Positions 19,885 through 59,682 of a stretch of 64,000 bases of DNA are shown here, piece by piece. The stretch comes from a virus. The first letter of the stretch is position 1. Every line of letters starts with the position of its first letter. The DNA lies in the UHGV virus genome UHGV-0015805; one strand, given 5' to 3'. Both the position numbers and the translations under genes were made by a program. The notes beneath the pieces are model-generated. The model did not search any database. It worked only from the letters and a program-made list of their open reading frames with translations, and was not told the DNA's origin.

Positions 19885-21377
19885 TGTAACAAGTGAGCGT
19901 GAAGCAGATGCCGCAGAACGAGTAATTTCGGTAATGCCAGTTAATACATAATTTATTTGCCAGAGGACGCCAACCCTCTAAGCGATTCTTGAAAAAATAT
20001 TTTATAAGAATTGTCCTTATCAAATAAATAATAAGGTATTCTTATCAAAGGAATGTTGTTTTCTTTGCAATAAGCATCTTTTATCTTATCATGCCTTTTA
20101 GTGCTTTCAAAAGTTTTTTGAGCGCGCTCAAATGATATGCGATTAAAACAACACGGTTTATAGTGACCTTGTCCGTCTATTTCCACAAGAATGCCACCAT
20201 CTACGATGTAGAAATCAAACGGTAACGGCAGTATATCCCTGCATTGATTTAATGAATATTGCCGCACATATTTAATATTAAGTTCTTGTAGAAGCTTTTC
20301 AAACATGTCCTCAAACCGCGACATGCTCTTAGCGCAAACAGAACACCTCGTTTTCCCATTTTGAAACGCCGCTATTGATGTATCAAATCGGTTGCCACAT
20401 TCGCAAATAAACGAAAGGGATGTCAATCTTCCACCTTGATACTCTTTGTCGTTGCAAAATCCAATACACTCTACGTTTGCGCCATGTGTACTTGCCCACC
20501 AATTCACATTGTAAATATAGTTCTTTCTATTTATCCGAACATCAAAACGAGACATTCCTTTGCCAGAATTTATTGCAGCTGCAGAAATAAATCCTCTATA
20601 TCCTTCGGCGTCCTCGACCTCTACCCTTTGAGCATACTTTAAATCTCTCGTATCTTCATCAGATATTATCTTATAGCCGTGTGCGGATATCATCTCTCCG
20701 TATATTCTTTTTTGTCTTTTTGACGCCCGAACTTTTGTTGCGCATGACACGCAAACGAAACGATTTCTACAAGATATCTCGTATACTTTTTTACGAAATA
20801 CATTTCCACAACCGCAACGAAGTTCAATTATGGCGCACCCGTTTCGACCAGTTGACCACGAGACAAACTCAGTGGTCGGCGCACATTTTGACAAAAGAAC
20901 ACGCATATTATGCTCGATGTTTGCGTAATTATATTTACCCCATATTGTTGGCGACTTACCAGCCTTTAAGTTGGAATAAGACGCATAACACCATATTCCG
21001 TCCTTTCTTTCGCAAAGCACATATTCGTTTGCATTGACATAATCACCAATTATTTTAAGTCCATGAGAGTTAAACAATTTTATAACTTCAGAATATTCTA
21101 ATTTTTTCAAGAATCCTCCCTCTTTCAATGGAGATTAGACCATATCTTTTTTACCTATGTTTCCCCGCGCTTGCGGGTATGCCTACTGAATTAGTAGGGC
21201 TTACTGGTCGTTGAACAGTTATCAATTACCTATTGATAACTTGCTGCGGATTATCCAATCTCTATATTTGTTACTATACAGCAGTCATTACTTGCTCCAC
21301 CGCATTATTACTAATACGGTTTAGTATATAGAGCTCTAAGGAACTTCCCGTCAATTTATAGGTTTTTAATTGACCTA
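19885..21377 (-). mobile_element. group I intron (TMP intron 2) carrying a HEG in its 3' part
   Basis: On the minus-strand RNA: P-like AAUUGACGGGAAG (plus 21344-21356), Q AAUCCGCAGC (21243-21252), R GUUCAACGACCAG (21199-21211), S AAGAUAUGGUCU (21137-21148). P7 is GACCA/UGGUC, co-varied relative to GACUA/UAGUC in the other introns. Confidence 0.55.
19953..21128 (-). CDS. intron-encoded PD-(D/E)xK (DUF559/Vsr-like) homing endonuclease with Cys-rich repeats
   Basis: C-terminus ILPLPFDFYIVDGGILVEIDGQGHY...KRHDKIKDAYCKENNIPLIRIPY. Repeated CxCGN / CxxC motifs. UUG start. Confidence 0.55.
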   Translation of the reverse strand: MKEGGFLKKLEYSEVIKLFNSHGLKIIGDYVNANEYVLCERKDGIWCYASYSNLKAGKSPTIWGKYNYANIEHNMRVLLSKCAPTTEFVSWSTGRNGCAIIELRCGCGNVFRKKVYEISCRNRFVCVSCATKVRASKRQKRIYGEMISAHGYKIISDEDTRDLKYAQRVEVEDAEGYRGFISAAAINSGKGMSRFDVRINRKNYIYNVNWWASTHGANVECIGFCNDKEYQGGRLTSLSFICECGNRFDTSIAAFQNGKTRCSVCAKSMSRFEDMFEKLLQELNIKYVRQYSLNQCRDILPLPFDFYIVDGGILVEIDGQGHYKPCCFNRISFERAQKTFESTKRHDKIKDAYCKENNIPLIRIPYYLFDKDNSYKIFFQESLRGLASSGK

Positions 21378-21695
21378 TTAACCTAAGCCAATGCTCTCTT
21401 CCATCGTATTTCCGCCAACAGACATTGCGGCAGACATATTTCCGAGGTTTCGAGCTAAATCTGCTGAAGAAACCGCCATATGGTTGCTGACATTATTGAC
21501 GCTATCAATGATATGAGAAGATTCATCAGCAGCAATATTAAATGCCTTCATCTGGGCAATGATAAACTCAGATGCTTCACCCGCCGAAAGTTGCTCATCG
21601 GCGATATTTTGGTACATAGCGGCAACTTTTGCTAATTCCGCAGCATCGGTTTCATTGAACCCGGCTTTCGCAAATTCGGTTGCGCTTTCCACCAT
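21378..21695 (-). CDS. tail tape measure protein, exon 2 (approximate boundaries)
   Basis: ...AELAKVAAMYQNIADEQLSAGEASEFIIAQMKAF... is TP901-type TMP N-terminal region-like. Flanked by intron core elements on both sides. Confidence 0.5.
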   Translation of the reverse strand: MVESATEFAKAGFNETDAAELAKVAAMYQNIADEQLSAGEASEFIIAQMKAFNIAADESSHIIDSVNNVSNHMAVSSADLARNLGNMSAAMSVGGNTMEESIGLG

Positions 21696-24834: not shown

Positions 24835-25893
24835 TTACTGCTCAACAGTAATATGCACAAATGCGGGGTCAACTTCCGTGCCAGTAAGCTTAACACTGAC
24901 AACTGCATCGCCCGCAGTTGCTTTAGCGGTGATAACGCCAGTGTTTGCCCCAACAGTAACAGCAGAGCCAGAATCGACCGTAAAGGTCAGGTCTGCGTTA
25001 TTCAGTTTCTTAGATGCGGTCATGCCACCAAACACGCCATAAACATCAATGGTCGTGCTCGTGCTGACTTTCATGGTAACATCAGACGGAACGGGCGCAA
25101 GTGCGCGAACATTCGCTTTCCAGTCTGCGCCGAAGATTTCCTCAGTCATAGTGCCATAGTACGGATCCTCTTCGCAGCTGTCGCCCTCGTCAACTGCAAG
25201 TGCAGAGCCAGACAGGGAAATATTACCCACAGAAGAAGACGTGAGAGAAATCTCGTTCGAGCCATCCAACTGGAAGCTCGGAATGTCAACAATCAGTCTG
25301 CCATATTTTGTGGCGGAACCAACGTCAGCAGTCTCGCCGCTAAACAGGTCGTTCAGAAGCACAATGTGCACAACCTTCGGCACATACTGTGTCTTGATTT
25401 TAAGAGAACGCGCGTTTGCATTCTGATAGAAATACTTAACACAATACTTGTCGCCAGCTTGCGCGCCACCAATGGTCAGAGTGCTACCTGTAACAGTACC
25501 AATGGTCCAGTTGGCATCAGCAGGCTTTTTATACCATGCGATAACAGAGCCGTCAAAAGCAACGGGCGCATTTGCAAGAGTAATCGTTCCGCCTGCAGCA
25601 ACAGTTTCGCCAGTAGCAGCAGACTCATAAAGAGTAATGCCGCCTTGGTTGATATCAACACCGAGGTTAAGCGCCATGTATTCAAGCGAGAACATAGCGT
25701 CAGTAATCGTCAGATTCAGAGCGCTGTCATGGAAGTATTTGCCCCAAAGCCCATTGGCAGCTCCTGCTCTAACTTCCTCATTCTCAATGGCGAAATTGAA
25801 TGTGCTTTCGGTAAGCGTCTTGCATACTGCAATCAGCTCATTGTTTGCAAACAGCAATGCTCTTGCAACCCCAGCAAGAAATTTCTTAGCCAT
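24835..25893 (-). CDS. major tail protein with C-terminal Ig-like (Big_2-like) domain
   Basis: 352 aa. C-terminus TFTVDSGSAVTVGANTGVITAKATAGDAVVSVKLTG is Ig-like. Followed by a strong terminator. Position upstream of chaperone-like ORFs and the tape measure. Confidence 0.5.
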   Translation of the reverse strand: MAKKFLAGVARALLFANNELIAVCKTLTESTFNFAIENEEVRAGAANGLWGKYFHDSALNLTITDAMFSLEYMALNLGVDINQGGITLYESAATGETVAAGGTITLANAPVAFDGSVIAWYKKPADANWTIGTVTGSTLTIGGAQAGDKYCVKYFYQNANARSLKIKTQYVPKVVHIVLLNDLFSGETADVGSATKYGRLIVDIPSFQLDGSNEISLTSSSVGNISLSGSALAVDEGDSCEEDPYYGTMTEEIFGADWKANVRALAPVPSDVTMKVSTSTTIDVYGVFGGMTASKKLNNADLTFTVDSGSAVTVGANTGVITAKATAGDAVVSVKLTGTEVDPAFVHITVEQ

Positions 25894-28854: not shown

Positions 28855-29286
28855 TCATAAATCTATGCTGTCTAAATTTGCCGCAAGATATGCATTTATC
28901 TGTCTTGCATTTTCTTCGCGCAGTTTGTCGATAACATTCTGTTTTTCTTTGAAATTTTGGGCTTCACTGTTAAATACAAATGATGAATTACTCTTTAATT
29001 TCAAAGCAATCTGCGCAGCATTGTTGTTTTCTCTCTGCCACCAAGTAATGACAAAGAAATTGGCAAGAATAGAAACTTCCTGCTCATTCAGGTCTGCAAT
29101 AAACGTCCGAGCTTCCTCGTCGTATTGCAAAGACTTTAAGCATTCATAGAACTGCGGGACCGCAACCATAAGCAATCCGTCGCAATATTTTTCAAACCCG
29201 TCAATGCTTGAATCAAAGAGCTTTTTTAGCTTATAATCTTCAATGACTGCAAGCGCACGGGTCTCAATCGTGTCAAATGAGGTCAA
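28855..29286 (-). CDS. hypothetical protein (head-tail connector region)
   Basis: 143-aa ORF. Confidence 0.4.
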   Translation of the reverse strand: MTSFDTIETRALAVIEDYKLKKLFDSSIDGFEKYCDGLLMVAVPQFYECLKSLQYDEEARTFIADLNEQEVSILANFFVITWWQRENNNAAQIALKLKSNSSFVFNSEAQNFKEKQNVIDKLREENARQINAYLAANLDSIDL

Positions 29287-30000: not shown

Positions 30001-30855
30001 TTACTGAATGGTATAAACGCCAGCATAAGCAGAAGAAGCATATGCAAACGCATAGCTGATTCTCTGCGTGAAGTTGCTGGTGATGTCGGCATTCATATAG
30101 AAATCATTGCTGTTCGTCAGTTTCGTAGACAGAACGCCCTTCAGCAGTTTGTCCTGAGACGGAGAAACAACATAAATCTTGTTGTCGGGCAGAACGAGCT
30201 GACCGTCAGCGCCAACAGCGTTGTCAAGCTTCAGCACATCAAAGCCCATGATGCTTCTCATAAGCTCAACCTTGCCGTCGCCTTCGCCATCAACATTCAG
30301 ACGATAGCCAGAAGTGCTGTCAGGGATAACATTCATAAGAGCAGTAGCAGAGCCTGCGAACACAGGACGCACACCGCCATTGCGATACTGCACAGTTTCG
30401 CCCATCTTGACAAGCGTCTTGAGGTCGAACGCGCCAGTAACACTCAGAGCACCTGCAGGAATGGTAGCCAGACCAGCAGTCAGAATGTTCAGAGCATCGC
30501 CATACATTGCGGCATTGATGGACGCCACAACCCACATCAGCATTTCGCCAATATCTTCCTTGCCCGCAAGAACATTGTACATCTTAGCAAAGACTGTAAC
30601 AATGCGTTCCTCGGGAGCAACAGTCACATCGGTGGAATAACCGTGCTGTCTAAACGAGGTCCTTTCAGAACGCCCACCTTTTGAAATCAAGTAGTAGCCT
30701 CTTGCAGGCACGCGGAACTTAACCACATCACCAGCGTTTTCAGTACGCATGTCAGCGAACAGGTTAAACTGCGGCAGAATGGTCTGCGGAATAATTGCAC
30801 GGACGGTCGCATTTGCAATCGAAAGTGCAGCAATAATGTTCACATAAAGGCGCAA
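30001..30855 (-). CDS. major capsid protein, exon 2 (3' portion)
   Basis: 284 aa, UUG as first sense codon. HK97-fold MCP-like composition and position. Preceded by intron P7/P9 elements. Confidence 0.5.
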   Translation of the reverse strand: MRLYVNIIAALSIANATVRAIIPQTILPQFNLFADMRTENAGDVVKFRVPARGYYLISKGGRSERTSFRQHGYSTDVTVAPEERIVTVFAKMYNVLAGKEDIGEMLMWVVASINAAMYGDALNILTAGLATIPAGALSVTGAFDLKTLVKMGETVQYRNGGVRPVFAGSATALMNVIPDSTSGYRLNVDGEGDGKVELMRSIMGFDVLKLDNAVGADGQLVLPDNKIYVVSPSQDKLLKGVLSTKLTNSNDFYMNADITSNFTQRISYAFAYASSAYAGVYTIQ

Positions 30856-32299
30856 CCCCTTATGCAGTCTTGTTTCCGTGCGAAACAGACCTCTCGTATT
30901 TTCATACGATGTTCAGACTATATCTTCTTCTTATATATCAATTCTTAAATAATGATGCTCAGTATCGACCAAATACTGCACCCCTTGTTTAATTTGTTCT
31001 TTTGTGGGGACATTTCCCTTGCTCAAAAACCTCAAGACTTTTATCCCTTTGCGCATAGAATAAAAGTCTCTGCGTTTGTCTTGTTCTTTTTTGTTTTTGT
31101 GCCAAAAATACCCATCAAATTCAACATCAATTTTAACATCACCAATAACAAGTAGACAATCATAAATCACTTTATCAAACGGATAAGATGGGAAGCAATT
31201 TTCTTCTCCATACATTTCAATCAAAAGAGCCACCATTTCTTTCTCTGCTTTAGAGCTTGGGATGGTCCCATTGTTAATCATTGTCGCCCAGGATTTATGT
31301 CGCACCTCTGGACTCGATTGGGAACTTTCACCGCCATATCTCTCAACGCAAGTTTTCTTGGCTTTTTTAATTACCCCATCTGATTTAGCAGGGTTGTCTA
31401 CTCCATATTTCTCAAGACATGTTTTCTTAATTTTGTTCTGAATTTCTGGCGACTGCGAAACATTATTAACGCCATACTTTTTTATAATGGTATTTTTTGC
31501 CTTTTCTTTGAATTGTTGAACATGAAACGGCGCAACAGCCCCATATCTTTCGCGCATAGTACGACTTGCTTTTTCTTTAACCTCTTTGTTTCCAAGCGAA
31601 CACTCGATCCCATATTTTTTAATGTTTGTCCGTTTTATTTTTTCGGCAAATCTCGGAGACTGAATCGCTGCTACAACGCCATATTTAGTTTTCATAGTTT
31701 CACGCATTTTAATATTGCCACAGTCTTTACAAGCAGATTTATTGGATTCTTTTATGGAGCTATAATAGTTGTCTATAGTCTTTGTGAAAATTTTATGGCA
31801 ATAGTCACATTCTACTTGTATTTTCTCTTTTGAACCATGGGTAACAAGTTCTGCTGGAACCTCTATCCAATCTTTACAACTCGTAAATGTATATCCAATA
31901 GACTCATAATATTTACGATTATTTGGATTCCATTTAATTTTTATGTATTGCCCTGGTACAATCATAATATCACTCAATTCTTGGTCTGTTTTTGATATAT
32001 AAGAGTTACATTTTTCTTCCCGCATTAGCTTCGGGTTTTACTCCCCCTCAAGGGGATAGTCGTTGGGGGTTTCTCATATGCATTTGTCACATTTTATAGT
32101 GCATCAATACACTTAGAGCTTTCCCTGCGAAAGACCCATTTACATTCACTTAGGATTTAACCATATGAATATCCTCTAACTTTTTTCTGTTTTCACAGCC
32201 ATTCAGCTTGCCTTTTCAAGCTACTGTTTAGGCATAGAGGCTTTAGGGATTCAACGCATTTAACGTAAAGTCTTTACATTTTGCAATATAAAGAGGGCT
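30856..32299 (-). mobile_element. group I intron in the capsid gene with HEG in the P8 region
   Basis: R CAACGACUAUCCCC (plus 32052-32065) and S AAGAUAUAGUCUGAAC (30915-30926) bracket the HEG. P9-like hairpins CGUAUgaaaAUACG and GUUUCgcacGGAAAC before exon 2. Confidence 0.5.
30931..32025 (-). CDS. intron-encoded DUF559/Vsr-like (PD-(D/E)xK) homing endonuclease with tandem KYG DNA-binding repeats
   Basis: C-terminus PFDKVIYDCLLVIGDVKIDVEFDGYFWH...RRDFYSMRKGIKVLRF. Five or more repeats of the form K.KYGV.N..QSPE...KIKKT. Confidence 0.55.
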   Translation of the reverse strand: MREEKCNSYISKTDQELSDIMIVPGQYIKIKWNPNNRKYYESIGYTFTSCKDWIEVPAELVTHGSKEKIQVECDYCHKIFTKTIDNYYSSIKESNKSACKDCGNIKMRETMKTKYGVVAAIQSPRFAEKIKRTNIKKYGIECSLGNKEVKEKASRTMRERYGAVAPFHVQQFKEKAKNTIIKKYGVNNVSQSPEIQNKIKKTCLEKYGVDNPAKSDGVIKKAKKTCVERYGGESSQSSPEVRHKSWATMINNGTIPSSKAEKEMVALLIEMYGEENCFPSYPFDKVIYDCLLVIGDVKIDVEFDGYFWHKNKKEQDKRRDFYSMRKGIKVLRFLSKGNVPTKEQIKQGVQYLVDTEHHYLRIDI

Positions 32300-32542
32300 T
32301 CAAATTCTTACCCACTGAACAGACGGATGGTTAATCCACGCATCCTGCTCAAGCCCTTCACGAGCAACGCCAGACTTGCGCTCAACCTCAGACATAAAAG
32401 CGGTCTGAAGCAGACCCTTCTTCTCAGAGGAGCGCTCTTTATCTACAACATAAGACATTGCTGCTTCATAGAAATCAGTGTTCCCAGCAGCAAACTTAAT
32501 CAGTTCTTGATTCGTCAGCATATTATAATATTCTCCTTTCAA
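32300..32542 (-). CDS. major capsid protein, exon 1 (putative; 3' end inside the intron)
   Basis: 80-aa ORF immediately upstream of the intron. MCP N-arm-like sequence. Could instead be a separate small protein. Confidence 0.35.
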   Translation of the reverse strand: MKGEYYNMLTNQELIKFAAGNTDFYEAAMSYVVDKERSSEKKGLLQTAFMSEVERKSGVAREGLEQDAWINHPSVQWVRI

Positions 32543-36923: not shown

Positions 36924-38492
36924 TTAATCGGCATACAATTCGCGGCTTGCCTCGGTCGCAGCATCTACCGCTCCTTCTTCGCGCGGTCTGCCACCTTCTG
37001 ATTCCTGCGAAGTTGTATTGATGTTTACCATAAGTTGGCTATATTGCTCAAGCCATCCAGTGTTCTTGCTCTCTCTCAAAGCCGCCTCAAACAATGCGGG
37101 GTTCTGCCCTAAAACAGATGCCCAAGCAGATGGCGGCAAAACAATGCCCCTGTCTGCCAATTTGTTAATTTGGTCAAATCTTTGAGTGCGATCATATCTA
37201 TATGTCGCGCCGTCAAATGTAAACTTGAACTTATACTTCTTTGTCATTTGATTAACAAAGAAATCCATAAAGTTGTTAAACTGTGCATACATTGGACGCA
37301 TGGTTTGATAAACTTCGTTCTGTTGCGCCTCAAGTTCCGCCGCGCTTACTCTGTCAGTAGAATAAATAACGCGACTAATGCCAGTGCCACTTGCAGCAGT
37401 TGTAGCAACCTGGTCTTTATACATGTCGCCGTTTTTATCCTCAAACTGGAACAGTTTGTTATCTTCGGTCGGCATTGCCCCCAATTTAACAAGAGAACCG
37501 AATCCCGCCTTTGCCTTTGCCATAAGCTGCCCAAGCAGTTTAAGGTTAATTGCAAACTGGTCTTTTTGTTCGCCCGATTTTGCACCATCATAAAGCCTGA
37601 TTGTGCCGACAAGAATTGCATATGCAGAAATCAGGTCTTTATTATATTGCAGGCGCTCAACTTCTTCGTCTCGAAGAATATTCTTGACAAAAGATGCCAA
37701 GAACGGTACGGGAGAAAATGTTGATGGGTCCATTTTGAAAGTATAGGCTCCAAGAACAGGTGACGCATCTGCCCACAAAGCATATGTGCCAGTTCGCTTA
37801 TTTAATGGCGCAGACGGTTTATAATCAATGCCAGGAGATTCCATGACTCGCTCATACATCTTGCGTACAGCGGGGTCAAATTCGCCAATGTCGACGCCCG
37901 GTTGCATAAAGTATGTCATGTCCATTGAGTAAAGTAAGCCCTTTTCCCAATAGCCCGTAATCATACATCTGTCCTGCGGCATCATCTGCAATGCATACCG
38001 CATTTTCTTATTGCCATTGCCAGGCTTTGATTTGCGGAACCATGTGAAATATGTTTCGCGCCGCATAACATTCATCAGAACATTATGGAATTCTTTCTTG
38101 TAATCAAAGTTAAGAAGAAAGTCCTCGACCCGCGCTTTATCTTTTACATATTCAGCGCTTTCATAGTCCGCCTTTGTATATGCATTTGTGCACACATAAG
38201 ACAGGTCAAGCGCCAAAGAATTTACATAAGAATACAGGGTGCGCTTGAATATCATGTTGAATTGAGCCGCGAACTCATTATACATTTGCAGATTTTCAGG
38301 ACACGAATTAAAATCAACCAATGCCTTTTGAATGGCATCATAAGACGGGACGCCTTTTATTGTATTCAAATTCTGCAAAAGTTCATTTGATAAAAATGGC
38401 GAATAGTAATTAGAATCCATAAAGGCAAGCCCCTCAGAAAACTTTATAATGTCCTCAAGCTCTTCTCTTTCAAGCCTTTCTTTTCCGTTCAC
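36924..38492 (-). CDS. portal protein
   Basis: 522 aa, immediately after the terminase large subunit. Size and position are typical. Acidic C-terminus. Confidence 0.5.
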   Translation of the reverse strand: MNGKERLEREELEDIIKFSEGLAFMDSNYYSPFLSNELLQNLNTIKGVPSYDAIQKALVDFNSCPENLQMYNEFAAQFNMIFKRTLYSYVNSLALDLSYVCTNAYTKADYESAEYVKDKARVEDFLLNFDYKKEFHNVLMNVMRRETYFTWFRKSKPGNGNKKMRYALQMMPQDRCMITGYWEKGLLYSMDMTYFMQPGVDIGEFDPAVRKMYERVMESPGIDYKPSAPLNKRTGTYALWADASPVLGAYTFKMDPSTFSPVPFLASFVKNILRDEEVERLQYNKDLISAYAILVGTIRLYDGAKSGEQKDQFAINLKLLGQLMAKAKAGFGSLVKLGAMPTEDNKLFQFEDKNGDMYKDQVATTAASGTGISRVIYSTDRVSAAELEAQQNEVYQTMRPMYAQFNNFMDFFVNQMTKKYKFKFTFDGATYRYDRTQRFDQINKLADRGIVLPPSAWASVLGQNPALFEAALRESKNTGWLEQYSQLMVNINTTSQESEGGRPREEGAVDAATEASRELYAD

Positions 38493-38513: not shown

Positions 38514-39494
38514 TTAATATACAAGTTGTAAATCGTCAATATCATAATCTTCATCGTCATTGGTCAGGCGTTTATTCCATTCCATTTCGATTTTATCGAT
38601 TACAATATTGACATAAGACATAACAACAACGCGGTCTTTGGTCGCCTTATTGTCTTCTTTAAGATATAGATTGTCTCCCTTTATTTCTGTGTTAAGCTTG
38701 ATTGCTTCCTGAATAAGCAGGTCTGTCTCGCCATAAGGGGCAAGCTTGTCTGCTAATTCTTCTGAGGTCAATTTGAAGTATTCGCCCGAATCTTCAAGCT
38801 CTTGCTGTTTGTCCGCCATAGATACAAGCATCTTTATGTCGTTACATTCAAGATGCTTTCTAAGTGCAAGCCACCAAACACCATTCTTTTGTGCCGAGCC
38901 CTGTGCAGGAATAATGCATGGGACAGCATCTTTATCAACCGTCCGCATACGCAAATCGGCAAGCTTTGATTCTGTTACGAGGTGATAGTTAAAATTCTGA
39001 GCGACTGTCAATCCTCGTGAATCCCACATATAGCCGCGCCTTGGATGCGTCCTTTTTTCGGTCATAAGGTTATATAGTGTTTCGCCGCCCGCTCTAAGGT
39101 CGTTTACAATAAAGTCTGCGTTATAGTCCCAAAACAGCTCTCTAACGCGCCATTGCGCGCCTGTACTGTCTGAGGCGGGCCATTGTTCCATATATTCAAG
39201 ACTACGGATGAACCGACCGTTTTTCCAGACAGCCGACCAGCACTCAATAATTGTATTATCGTTGCCGTATCCCGTCTTAAATGTTGTGTTCGCAAATGCG
39301 TAGTCAACGCCAACAAGCCGTATTTCGTCCGCTTGTTTTTCTCTGAACGGCGGCTTTGTGTTCGCCAATACCTGTGTATCGGTAGGCGGAACATATGCCT
39401 CTGGAATTTCTTGATTGTCCTTAAAATTCTTTAGGCTAAAGAATGCACCTTCGGGACTACCCTGTGTTTCATTTTCCATCTCCATTGAAAACAT
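38514..39494 (-). CDS. terminase large subunit, exon 2 (nuclease domain)
   Basis: LVGVDYAF (first catalytic Asp motif of the terminase RNase-H-like nuclease), further acidic motifs, acidic C-terminal tail. Confidence 0.55.
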   Translation of the reverse strand: MFSMEMENETQGSPEGAFFSLKNFKDNQEIPEAYVPPTDTQVLANTKPPFREKQADEIRLVGVDYAFANTTFKTGYGNDNTIIECWSAVWKNGRFIRSLEYMEQWPASDSTGAQWRVRELFWDYNADFIVNDLRAGGETLYNLMTEKRTHPRRGYMWDSRGLTVAQNFNYHLVTESKLADLRMRTVDKDAVPCIIPAQGSAQKNGVWWLALRKHLECNDIKMLVSMADKQQELEDSGEYFKLTSEELADKLAPYGETDLLIQEAIKLNTEIKGDNLYLKEDNKATKDRVVVMSYVNIVIDKIEMEWNKRLTNDDEDYDIDDLQLVY

Positions 39495-40745
39495 TTTTTT
39501 AAACTATTTTTTTTGAGGTTAATTATATATATTGCCAGTGAAATCCATATGCGATCCGTTGTTGCCCGCGACAACACTTGGAAATTGAGGACGGGTCCTT
39601 GTTCAAGGCACGACCCGCCTCAGCCACGGATTCATAAGTAACTCCCGTTTCGACACACATCAGCTTCTTCCCACCAATGTTAAGATGTGCAATCCGCGAT
39701 TGATCTCGCATCTCCTCTGTCCAAATTCGATTTTTATTATATCTTCTAAGATGCTCTTTTACGCTTTCTGGACATTTGTGCCCTACTCCGTTCCTCTTAC
39801 CTTTCATCCTCTCCGACCTACGACGGCATATTTCTTCCGAAAGCTTCCATGTTTTGCCTTTTACATTTTGGTTGCCCATTATACTTTGGCTTATTTTATT
39901 TCTTGTTTCTTCGGAATGTTTTTTGCCGAACATGTGATTATCTTTCCCGCATTTTATTTGTTCCGGGTGTTCTTTAAAACGTTTTTTAGCTATTTCGCTC
40001 ATTCTCTTCTTGTCTTCTTCTCTGTGACGATATCCTTTTGTGCTTTCTGCTATCGGACATATATTGTATCCGACATCTCTGTCGGCACTATCATAAAAAT
40101 CTATCCAATACTGCTCGCGTTGTGTTAAATTTTCGTGCGATACGCCTCTTTCCAACACTTCAACACTAAAGTTATCAAATCCATACTTTTTAATAGCCAT
40201 GCAGATACGCCTATTTGTATCTTCGCGTAAGTATTGTTTCATACGAGTATAAAAATCCACCGTCTGCCCGACATAAACCTTCCCGTTTATTAGGTTTCGC
40301 CATAAATAAATGCAACTAAAAGAAAATTTCTTTTTATCATTAACCTCAAAAATATTCATGCTATAAAATCCTTCCTGCAATAAAGATTATTATTCAAGAA
40401 CAAATGGGGTAATTTGTTCGTTTGCAGACGAACAAAAACAATTTGCAACTTGCTGTCCCCCATTGTTCTTTTAAGCACAGGTCGCTACTCCTCGTTTCTC
40501 TCGTTTTTTTGAGAGACTGCATGTTTCCATGCAGATAAGACTATATCTTCACTTTGCTTTTATGCAAAGGCATACCACTTCCACAACCAATCGCTTGTTG
40601 TGTACTCCCTTACGGGATAGTCGTTGAACGTTCCTCTATTCAAAGCTTCGCTGCTGATTGCCCAATTTTTATCATTTTCTCGCATATCACACTTAGCCTT
40701 ATTTCATGCTTATGTTGTAGCTGATAAAACTCTAAGGGTGTTCCA
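39495..40745 (-). mobile_element. group I intron in the terminase gene with a GIY-YIG HEG in a 3' extension
   Basis: Q AAUCAGCAGC (plus 40650-40659), R GUUCAACGACUAUCCC (40614-40629), S AAGAUAUAGUCU (40538-40549), P9 GNRA hairpin CUGCAUGgaaaCAUGCAG (40517-40534), P8 CACAACaagcgauugGUUGUG. Confidence 0.55.
39523..40359 (-). CDS. GIY-YIG homing endonuclease (I-TevI/Seg-like) with NUMOD3-type repeats
   Basis: MNIFEVNDKKKFSFSCIYLWRNLINGKVYVGQTVDFYTRMKQYL (GIY...YVG...R motif). GKKHSEETRNKISQS is a NUMOD3-like repeat. RBS AGGAAGGA. Confidence 0.7.
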   Translation of the reverse strand: MNIFEVNDKKKFSFSCIYLWRNLINGKVYVGQTVDFYTRMKQYLREDTNRRICMAIKKYGFDNFSVEVLERGVSHENLTQREQYWIDFYDSADRDVGYNICPIAESTKGYRHREEDKKRMSEIAKKRFKEHPEQIKCGKDNHMFGKKHSEETRNKISQSIMGNQNVKGKTWKLSEEICRRRSERMKGKRNGVGHKCPESVKEHLRRYNKNRIWTEEMRDQSRIAHLNIGGKKLMCVETGVTYESVAEAGRALNKDPSSISKCCRGQQRIAYGFHWQYI

Positions 40746-41594
40746 GCAATTCAATATGTTTAATGCGAACCTTTTCAAATCCGCTTTGGACATTTTCTTC
40801 TTTGCCTTTCGGTAGTCCGCCCATGTTCGGCTTCCTTCTTGAATTGCAGTATAAATGTCCTCTGCCATAGGAATGTACTTCTCGTGCTTTGATGTATAAT
40901 AGCCCTCAACGCATTTTCTGTATTCTCTGATAAACCATTCCCACTCATACCGAGTAGATGAAATATAGCAAGATTTTGCTGCCTTTATCCACCTATCTGT
41001 TTTATACTTAGGGTCAAGTGTAAATGGCGCAGGACGCTCATGCCCCATTGGCTCAAATACTGAGTCAAGAATTGCTTTCTTCAGCAATCGCGTCTCTTCA
41101 TATATCGTAAATGTAGAACGCATACCACGGGCGTTTTCAGAACACACAGCGACCGTTGTCGTTGATTCATTTAATGTGTTCGTTAAGACGAAAACACCCT
41201 CATCAAGCATTTTAACTGTCAAATAGCCCTTCTCATACAAATACTTCAAATATGGCGAATATTTCTTAATGATTTCTTTTATCATCTTATCTCTTACAAG
41301 TCTTGCGGACTGCGGGATAGAAGATGATGTAACAACAATTTCTGAATGCGGATATAAACTCATTGCACAAAATGCAGCAACGCCAACAATAAAAGACTTC
41401 GCCGTTGAACGAGACGAAAAATCCCAATATTCGTCGGCAACGCCGATCATGTGCAATTTCAGCTTCTGCACAGGATATAGCTTAATACCAAGGACCTCTT
41501 CAGCAAATAAGTCCCAATTCCTGCGATAATAAGTTATCCACTTTTTGACATTTTCGGACTTGCGGAATTGTTCGTTTTCTCTTGCGGTCGGCAT
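40710..41594 (-). CDS. terminase large subunit, exon 1 (ATPase domain; last ~15-20 codons are intron read-through)
   Basis: LYPVQKLKLHMI and a P-loop-like SSRSTAKSF. Walker B-like TFTIYEE. AAGGAG RBS. Start overlaps the TerS-like stop. Confidence 0.55.
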   Translation of the reverse strand: MPTARENEQFRKSENVKKWITYYRRNWDLFAEEVLGIKLYPVQKLKLHMIGVADEYWDFSSRSTAKSFIVGVAAFCAMSLYPHSEIVVTSSSIPQSARLVRDKMIKEIIKKYSPYLKYLYEKGYLTVKMLDEGVFVLTNTLNESTTTVAVCSENARGMRSTFTIYEETRLLKKAILDSVFEPMGHERPAPFTLDPKYKTDRWIKAAKSCYISSTRYEWEWFIREYRKCVEGYYTSKHEKYIPMAEDIYTAIQEGSRTWADYRKAKKKMSKADLKRFALNILNCWNTLRVLSATT

Positions 41595-58872: not shown

Positions 58873-58946
58873 GCTGTAATAGCTCAACGGAAGAGCAATC
58901 GGCTTATAACCGATAGACGATAGTTCGACACTATCTTACAGTACCA
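58873..58946 (+). tRNA. tRNA, anticodon UAU (Ile, AUA-decoding) with encoded CCA
   Basis: Manual fold. Acceptor GCUGUAA/UUACAGU. D arm GCUC-AACGGAA-GAGC. Anticodon arm AUCGG-CUUAUAA-CCGAU. Variable loop AGAC. T arm GAUAG-UUCGACA-CUAUC. U8, A14, G18G19, U33, A37, U54U55C56 and G53-C61 all present. 3' ACCA. Confidence 0.7.
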
Positions 58947-59322: not shown

Positions 59323-59535
59323 ATGGTAGTATTTGCAATGTATCGAAGCACATATTTGTATGGATGCGGATTTTACACAAAGACATTTTACTCGTTGTCC
59401 GAAGCGGCGCGATTTTACGTCATGAACTTTGAGAGAGTTGCAAATATCAAATGTGCTCACAAACAACGCAAAATTCTTTGTGATAAAATTCAATCGCTTA
59501 TGGACAGGCGTAAACATTTTGAAATGAACGCTTAG
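59323..59535 (+). CDS. hypothetical protein
   Basis: Likely start MVVFAMYRST with AAGAGGTG RBS. The track ORF is 59245..59535. Confidence 0.35.
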   Translation: MVVFAMYRSTYLYGCGFYTKTFYSLSEAARFYVMNFERVANIKCAHKQRKILCDKIQSLMDRRKHFEMNA

Positions 59536-59682
59536 CTCAAAGGGAGAGCGCCGATAGAAATTCAGCGACGAGGCTGACGGGAGGATGAAAGTTCGAGTCT
59601 TTCAGTGTTCACTCGGATAGACTATGCGATATTAAGAAGTTTGCAGATAGCGTGATTTGTGAACAGATGCATAGTCCACATT

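Follow-up and report, generated by a model that had tools for sequence, protein, structure and literature searches.

A probable mobile group I intron with an endonuclease gene in P8, and a candidate 5' splice site after G, in the major capsid gene of an SPbeta-like uncultured gut phage

We analysed a 64,000-nucleotide (nt) stretch of the virus genome UHGV-0015805 (the window), in which three open reading frames (ORFs) are listed on the minus strand between 32542 and 30001, encoding 80 (32542..32300), 364 (32025..30931) and 284 (30855..30001) amino acids (aa). Comparison with related phages supported the view that the two outer ORFs belong to one gene for an HK97-fold major capsid protein in an uncultured SPbeta-like gut phage, on the minus strand and with a product of 346 aa, which is broken up by an intron. 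Exon 1 (32521..32311, minus strand, 211 nt), with a ribosome-binding box AAGGAG (32538..32533, minus strand) upstream of its ATG, encodes residues 1-70 and the first base of codon 71, and is collinear with nt 1-211 of the gene on the intronless contigs L001 and L155. Exon 2 (30830..30001, minus strand, 830 nt including the stop) encodes residues 71-346, and the joined exons form a 1,041-nt ORF with a single stop, at its end. The intron between them (32310..30831, minus strand, 1,480 nt) starts with UAAGAAUUUG and ends with AUUAUUG, the terminal G being 30831. An earlier, sequence-only reading had taken the 80-aa ORF as exon 1, but this ORF consists of exon 1 together with 7 codons upstream and 3 codons into the intron. 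The same reading had put the splice junction and the start of exon 2 at TTG 30855; this is too far upstream by 25 nt, as the 284-aa ORF begins with 25 nt of intron tail.

The intronless alleles lack precisely these 1,480 nt. The protein of L155 is 100% identical to the spliced product, with 22 synonymous differences in the DNA, while that of L001 (P0001) is 97% identical and its contig reads CCGTCTGTTCAGTGGG|CTGCACTTTCG (CAGTGGG|CTGCAC) without interruption. The W70-A71 junction peptide of the spliced product is ...EGLEQDAWINHPSVQWAALSIANATVR, and the homologue alignment gives the protein join as ...HPSVQW|AALSIANATVR.... The boundary is ambiguous by one G; a one-base leftward shift of the junction was considered and rejected, and so was a candidate junction with exon 1 ending GGGU and exon 2 starting from GUUGCG, the 355-aa product of which exceeds the homologues by 9 residues. 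When the outer ORFs were provisionally fused, the search gave 360 homologues, mostly of 346-350 aa, with both exons covered, and hundreds of intronless 346-aa capsid homologues span both exons. Exon 2 alone does not amount to a full-length capsid protein, since it covers only residues 71-346; the refuting outcome named in the sequence-only reading thus did not occur.

The AlphaFold model of the spliced product, built on 50 homologues, had a predicted local distance difference test score (pLDDT) of 74.6. When this model was compared with the PDB by Foldseek, the 50 best matches were all HK97-fold proteins, each with a probability of 1.0. They comprised 49 capsids of phages, satellites or phage-inducible chromosomal islands (PICI), with those of T7, HK97, SaPI1 and an actinophage among them, and one encapsulin shell protein, which has the HK97 fold too. 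Pfam searches with the separate exon products, the fused protein and one homologue yielded no capsid family, and a capsid profile found no match among the PDB sequences; the capsid identity was thus named by fold comparison only. The database lists PF27364 for capsid homologues, and the homologue in Enterocloster phage PMBT24, 35% identical, is annotated as major capsid protein. The assignment as a major capsid gene in the sequence-only reading is therefore supported.

These data bear directly on the possibility that the 80-aa ORF, a free-standing endonuclease gene and the 284-aa ORF are three independent genes. Gene callers indeed annotate separate genes on public contigs, and free-standing endonuclease genes are common in phages. 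However, the intronless alleles fuse both outer ORFs into one 346-aa protein of identical sequence, the HK97 fold requires both parts, the sequences on either side of the endonuclease gene make up a covarying ribozyme core, as described below, and in other phages, L036/L213 and L191, ORF-less versions of the insertion interrupt that very codon. We consider three separate genes to be extremely improbable.

To describe the ribozyme we used pattern scans of IMG/VR and contig look-ups, which gave many relatives of the intron, some of them ORF-less and about 380-435 nt long. Nine distinct family members were aligned after removing the looped-out ORFs, and 96 named pairs were counted. Standard pairs occupied 94.5% of the cells, compared with 35-48% when the partners were slid by 1-3 columns. 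Furthermore, 55 of the 96 pairs change on both sides, in a compensatory manner, and none of 500 shuffles reached the observed covariation score.

All elements of the fold lie on the minus strand. P1 (32313..32295) pairs the exon bases GGG (32313..32311) and the intron base U32310 with the guide sequence GCCC (32298..32295), and is followed by the P2 hairpin (32294..32271; UCUUUAUAU / AUGUAAAGA), in which six of nine pairs change on both sides. The 5' strand of P3 (UUACGU, 32268..32263) pairs with AUGUAA (32011..32006), four of its six pairs being compensatory. P4 (UGCG / CGCA) and P5 (CCC / GGG) occupy 32258..32126 together with a P5 extension of about 105 nt, which holds the conserved loop UAUGGUUAAAUCCUAAG; here J5/4 reads UCUUU and lacks the AA normally found there, and two U.U mismatches lie in inner P4. 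P6 and P6a (GGG..CUC / GAG..CCC) were placed at 32125..32067 by the covariation alignment. The R element CAACGACUAUCCCC, read from the sequence, lies at 32065..32052, exactly where it had been predicted. The S element AAGAUAUAGUCUGAAC, read in the same way, is also present, but it extends over 30926..30911, so that the range previously given (30915-30926) was 4 nt short at its lower bound. P7 is formed by GACUAU in R (32061..32056) and AUAGUC in S (30921..30916), and its C-G pair becomes U-A or A-U in relatives. Both P3 and P7 are 100% paired, with six and three compensatory versions, respectively. The subgroup IA hallmarks P7.1 (CCCC / GGGG) and P7.2 (CCCG / CGGG) lie at 32055..32019 (CCCCUUGAGGGG and CCCGAAGCUAAUGCGGG); P7.1 is 88.9% paired with one compensatory pair, and P7.2 is 100% paired with four. 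P8 is a 12-base-pair stem (32003..31992 with 30941..30930; CUUAUAUAUCAA / UUGAUAUAUAAG) that closes off the endonuclease gene, in agreement with the earlier placement of this gene in P8, and ORF-less relatives have short P8 hairpins at the same place. The P9-like hairpins previously noticed before exon 2 were resolved in the covariation alignment as P9 (30908..30895), P9.1 (30890..30867) and P9.2 (30864..30843), with U-A in the window versus C-G in L007 at one pair of P9.2. The intron 3' tail after P9.2 reads GUGAACAUUAUUG.

The R and S elements, the covarying helices from P1 to P9.2, the terminal G, the exact absence from intronless alleles and an RF00028 match in an ORF-less homologue all argue for the group I assignment made in the sequence-only reading. 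The insertion in codon 71 (site A) is thus very probably a mobile self-splicing group I intron of subgroup IA, with an endonuclease gene in P8, that splits the capsid gene. Several points weigh against this reading. Splicing and the exact junction are predictions from comparison. The covariance-model search that had been recommended earlier succeeded only in part, as a permissive Rfam scan of the window copy gave RF00028 over the 3' part only (28.8 bits, E = 6.5e-5), under the gathering threshold of 50 bits, because the 1.1-kilobase (kb) ORF interrupts the model. The whole-window Rfam scan detected two other group I introns (40517-40786 and 21116-21433) and missed the capsid intron, and the ORF-less relatives L036 and L013 had no Rfam match at the gathering threshold. 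The Rfam identity was checked through natural ORF-less relatives as well as through the pair counting. L023, an ORF-less homologue in a tail-tube gene that is 75% identical over the 5' 300 nt, reached 71.3 bits on RF00028, and L191, an ORF-less site-A copy, reached 33 bits. The family is a divergent yet genuine group I lineage, which is poorly detected by Rfam.

The score below the Rfam threshold, the atypical J5/4 without AA and the two U.U mismatches in inner P4 would also fit a decaying, non-splicing relic, with the capsid allele as a pseudogene in a defective phage. This is very unlikely, as the intron-bearing allele is found in many samples, on phage contigs of 30-75 kb, with exons and endonuclease ORF intact. 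Moreover, the helix changes are compensatory rather than random, and the exon differences between carriers are almost all synonymous.

We also examined the 5' splice site. In "virtually all" group I introns the splice site is preceded by a U that forms a wobble pair with a G of the guide sequence (PMC2504315), and a 2025 intron database describes this U.G rule as "completely conserved" and filters its entries by it (PMC11835236). Textbooks regard the U.G pair at this site as invariant. In the capsid gene, exon 1 ends with GGG, and the partner of the guide G is a U with which the inserted element itself begins (U32310), so that the frame is restored only if splicing follows the G. The sequence-only reading had overlooked this G as the last base of exon 1. 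The same arrangement, GGG|U ... GCCC ... G|(C/U), was found in 13 of 13 family members, which represent six capsid site-A lineages, four lineages at a second capsid site (site B), one at a site two bases downstream of B and two tail-tube sites. The guide GCCC abuts P2 directly, without a J1/2 spacer, and the terminal G is present in all 13 at the boundary set by intronless alleles or by the reading frame. Each of the 11 capsid-gene copies has an uninterrupted ORF across the join when the G|U...G| junction is used, whereas cutting after the wobble U breaks the frame. All six site-A lineages retain Ala71 (GCN), a residue that is Ala in 106 of 107 homologues. Directly after the last G, the sequence has C exactly where the intronless alleles have C, and U exactly where they have U, indicating that this base is exonic. 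On these comparisons we favour, with moderate confidence, a 5' splice site that follows G32311, itself G-C paired with the guide, and a U.G wobble one position into the intron; the spliced RNA would then read ...CAGUGGG|CUGCACUU....

This placement has to be weighed against the fact that a 5' exon ending in G contradicts the U.G cleavage rule. A literature search for natural introns in which a base other than U precedes the 5' splice site found no precedent, only statements of the rule. In the td intron of T4, which belongs to subgroup IA2, the junction is GGGU|UAA and the wobble U is the last exon base; by analogy, the paired U would be the last exon base here too, and the mRNA would be frameshifted. 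A canonical cut after the wobble U (32310), as described for all characterised group I introns, with the frame either rescued by another 3' site or left shifted, is hard to dismiss because the U.G pair is strictly conserved in the family (13/13). Its position also matches U(-1).G of td-like introns, and P10 pairs begin at the second exon-2 base in many copies, fitting the canonical geometry. The frame could be rescued in two ways. If the 3' site lay one base past the last G, residue 71 would become Val; the intron would then end in C or U instead of the universal G, and Val would stand where nearly all homologues (106/107) have Ala; moreover, the base after the last G varies as the intronless alleles do, which is expected only if it is exonic. 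If instead the 3' site followed the G in the P9.2 loop, 21 nt encoding seven residues (VLYVNII) would be inserted, in frame for both the A and B introns. This site is, however, out of frame in L023, which has a 19-nt tail, and in L013 the whole endonuclease gene would fall inside the "exon"; in addition, P9.2 shows compensatory changes and not coding constraint. An unrescued message, shifted by +1 and reading ...GUGGGUCUGCAC... at the junction with the extra U, would run into a stop after about 22 codons of an essential gene. We therefore regard the canonical cut as unlikely, though clearly less so than a relic or three separate genes.

Cleavage after G would extend beyond the window copy, and the comparison slightly favours the view that the gut-phage family constitutes a natural td-like IA clade cutting after a Watson-Crick-paired G, with the wobble at the first intron position. 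J5/4 is U-rich throughout the family (CUUU, GUUU or AUUU) and lacks the usual AA, which is found in J5/4 of three other introns, namely the two Rfam-detected introns of the window and an intron at a further site (site C) in L007. A U before the splice site was confirmed in the portal-proximal intron of the window and in the L007 site-C intron. The U-rich J5/4 and the missing J1/2 may be related to the displaced splice site. If the displacement is real, the 5' site would be set by something other than the wobble receptor, such as the length of the helix as counted from P2, and pipelines that demand a U at this position would mis-annotate or discard such introns. Confirmation by complementary DNA would provide a natural system for studying how a group I ribozyme positions its cleavage site, and would mean that automated intron boundaries, and the resulting proteins, are off by one base for this family.

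A predicted homing endonuclease is encoded in the P8 loop (32025..30931, minus strand), between R and S, as had been noted previously; it comprises 364 aa as listed, or 344 aa from the ATG at 31965. The listed start, ATG 32025, sits in the P7.2 loop, and at its other end the coding sequence runs into the 3' strand of P8. The true start is probably ATG 31965 (residue M21), because homologues align only from about residue 20, the consensus start MxxxxQxIxxKWN matches M21-IVPGQYIKIKWN, and residues 1-18 are modelled with pLDDT below 50. The protein contains the Pfam domain DUF7487 (E = 4.8e-37, 128.5 bits against a cut-off of 27), and the tandem KYG repeats of the earlier reading correspond to six K/R-Y-G repeats. 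It also has four invariant cysteines (CxxC...CxxC); the DUF7487 repeats and this zinc-type four-cysteine motif presumably serve DNA binding.

In the C-terminal domain, D289, E302, D304, W308, H309, D316 and R319 are invariant in 40 homologues. The DUF559 family (PF04480) gave E = 0.0022 and 18.3 bits on the window endonuclease, below the family cut-off of 20.6. PF04480 and PF18741 are present in many of the homologues, one of which is listed by one source as a very-short-patch-repair endonuclease, and phrog_12131, annotated as "homing endonuclease", matches the window protein. When compared with solved structures, the family profile had its best match in 3R3P, the catalytic domain of I-Bth0305I ("mobile intron protein"), with E = 7.9e-4, followed by the DUF559 structure 3HRL with E = 3.2e-3. 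Phmmer with the single endonuclease sequence found no match among PDB sequences, and Foldseek with the full-length model gave weak restriction-enzyme-fold matches only. The label "DUF559/Vsr-like, PD-(D/E)xK-type" proposed earlier is therefore reasonable for this predicted enzyme, in view of the homologue domains and the profile match to 3R3P, and membership in the EDxHD group, which follows from a marginal score, is likely. It counts against a firmer assignment that the similarity to I-Bth0305I is marginal in E-value and that endonuclease activity and target are predicted.

The same capsid gene occurs in other samples in four states: without an intron (L001 and L155), with intron A only (this window and L003), with intron B only (L008, L009, L011 and L012), and with both A and B (L007 and L010). 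Intron A in L003, L007 and L010 is the same intron as in the window, at 97% identity. The intron at site B is homologous to A, follows nt 365 within ...SKG|G..., and encodes a paralogous endonuclease of 374 aa. Among the 68 loci of this capsid family in IMG/VR, 16 are split, at A, B or the site two bases further on, and the four states occur among alleles more than 90% identical. The exons of the window are closest to an intronless allele (22 differences), compared with 53-63 differences from other carriers of intron A. Intron presence is thus discordant with exon similarity, indicating that gain or loss was recent and independent of the exon lineage. This presence/absence pattern is that expected for endonuclease-driven homing, with cleavage as a predicted step. 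These two sites in one gene and the 16 split loci show the mobility of the element in gut phages.

In mechanistic terms, the late transcript would have to lose exactly 1,480 nt (32310..30831) to encode the 346-aa capsid protein, as the comparison with intronless alleles indicates. Judged by its relatives, the RNA has a full catalytic core, consisting of P3-P8 with the guanosine site in P7, P7.1/P7.2, and P9-P9.2. It would fold and excise itself through two transesterifications, and an in-frame UGA three codons into the intron would free ribosomes before they enter the core. The P8 loop would supply the 344-364-aa endonuclease, with a Vsr/DUF559-like nuclease related to I-Bth0305I. This enzyme would cut intronless capsid alleles during co-infection, and repair would copy the intron into them. 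Such homing would explain the occurrence of zero, one or two introns in one gene among close relatives.

Site B is vacant in the window (30676-30691, minus strand), where the window and L155 read TTG ATT TCA AAA GGT GGG, while intron B carriers and other empty alleles have CTT GTG AGY AAG GG|T GGT. The changes in the window and L155 are mostly synonymous, with one Val/Ile exchange, and remove the GGG that is paired by the guide sequence of intron B; the window allele may thus be refractory to the site-B intron or its endonuclease. A closely related intron is found in L013 (6960-8330) and L016, in a tail-tube gene homologous to window 24835-25893. Here P8 is a short hairpin and a DUF7487 endonuclease is encoded after P9.2, in the 3' tail, indicating that the gene moved within, or invaded, the same ribozyme scaffold independently.

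Group I introns are known in the capsid genes of lactococcal phage Tuc2009 and mycobacteriophage LittleE, and splicing in LittleE was proven by reverse transcription-polymerase chain reaction and N-terminal sequencing across the junction (PMC3706429). These precedents had escaped the sequence-only reading. As in Tuc2009 and LittleE, the major capsid gene of a siphovirus is interrupted here by an endonuclease-bearing intron, and intronless relatives exist. The dependence of a capsid gene on RNA self-splicing is a striking arrangement, but in view of these precedents the split gene is a further example of a known one. In LittleE, however, exon 1 ends in U and the HNH endonuclease is encoded on the opposite strand. 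The gut-phage gene has two alternative insertion sites, a P8 endonuclease of the Vsr-like kind and an exon that ends with G. What could be new here is the displaced splice site, found across the family.

The layout otherwise resembles that of the T4 td intron, with a short P1 (GGGU with GCCU or GCCC) followed directly by P2 without J1/2, an intron beginning with UAA, both P7.1 and P7.2, and an endonuclease ORF looped out of the core. In td, the ORF encodes the GIY-YIG enzyme I-TevI and lies in P6. By contrast, the capsid intron has its ORF in P8 and a U-rich J5/4, and its single U is assigned to the intron (GGG|UAA) by comparison. Vsr-like (EDxHD) intron endonucleases are an established family (PMC3984707). 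I-Bth0305I (PDB 3R3P), from a Bacillus phage with a group I intron in its recA gene, is also an intron-encoded Vsr-like nuclease of this EDxHD family, and the E...D...H...D residues of that family are invariant in the endonucleases of the capsid intron. The likeness is detectable by profile and not by single sequence, the N-terminal part here consists of DUF7487 KYG repeats and the four-cysteine motif, and the host gene and phage are different. The Jug phages, gut-metagenome Bacteroides phages of 360-400 kb with mostly short introns (about 200 nt), likewise have essential genes split by group I introns, together with endonuclease genes, with presence and absence varying among close relatives; the excerpted passages of that report mention neither capsid-gene introns nor splice-site anomalies (PMC12880540).

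The capsid gene lies in a head-morphogenesis module on the minus strand, in the order portal (36924-38492, phrog_2739), a YonD_N-like gene of 553 aa, a gene of 183 aa, capsid and tail genes, and the neighbouring genes in L001 contain the SPbeta-type domains YonD_N, YomX_C, YomW and YomU. The closest cultured relatives are Enterocloster phages, at 35% capsid identity, and a megablast search of the region against GenBank phages gave no match.

The window and related contigs contain further introns. A canonical intron (39504-40778, minus strand; RF00028, 81.6 bits) separates exons at 41594..40779 and 39503..38514 of a gene directly upstream of the portal gene, which is terminase-like by position only. 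Its P1 consists of GCGGAU / GUUCGC, with U before the splice site, the terminal G is at 39504, and a GIY-YIG endonuclease with NUMOD3 (40380..39523) is encoded in its 3' tail. In the region 19953-21433 (minus strand), RF00028 scored 52.1 bits at 21116-21433 inside a PhageMin_Tail (tape-measure-like) gene, and the 391-aa ORF that follows this match corresponds to PHROG families of homing/HNH endonucleases. The site-C intron of L007 (6764-8176) is canonical, with GCGAGU|UAAUGG..GCCCGC, J5/4 CAAU and a DUF7487 endonuclease of 361 aa. It lies in the next-but-one gene from the capsid gene and splits a homologue of the window gene 28855-29286, which is intact in the window. In L045 (2270-3620), an intron with an HNH endonuclease interrupts a more distant capsid homologue at a candidate third site (..NG|YDV.., equivalent to ..MG|FDV..); its exon 1 appears to end with AAUGG, paired with CCAU without a wobble, the junction being taken from a gapped protein alignment. 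Unrelated to the capsid intron is a RAGATH-18 RNA (2575-2651, 67 bits) on the AT-rich viral contig L131, close to an intron-like sequence related to the family. Finally, the window encodes tRNA-Ile (anticodon UAU) and tRNA-Phe (anticodon GAA), at 58873-58946 and 59526-59612.

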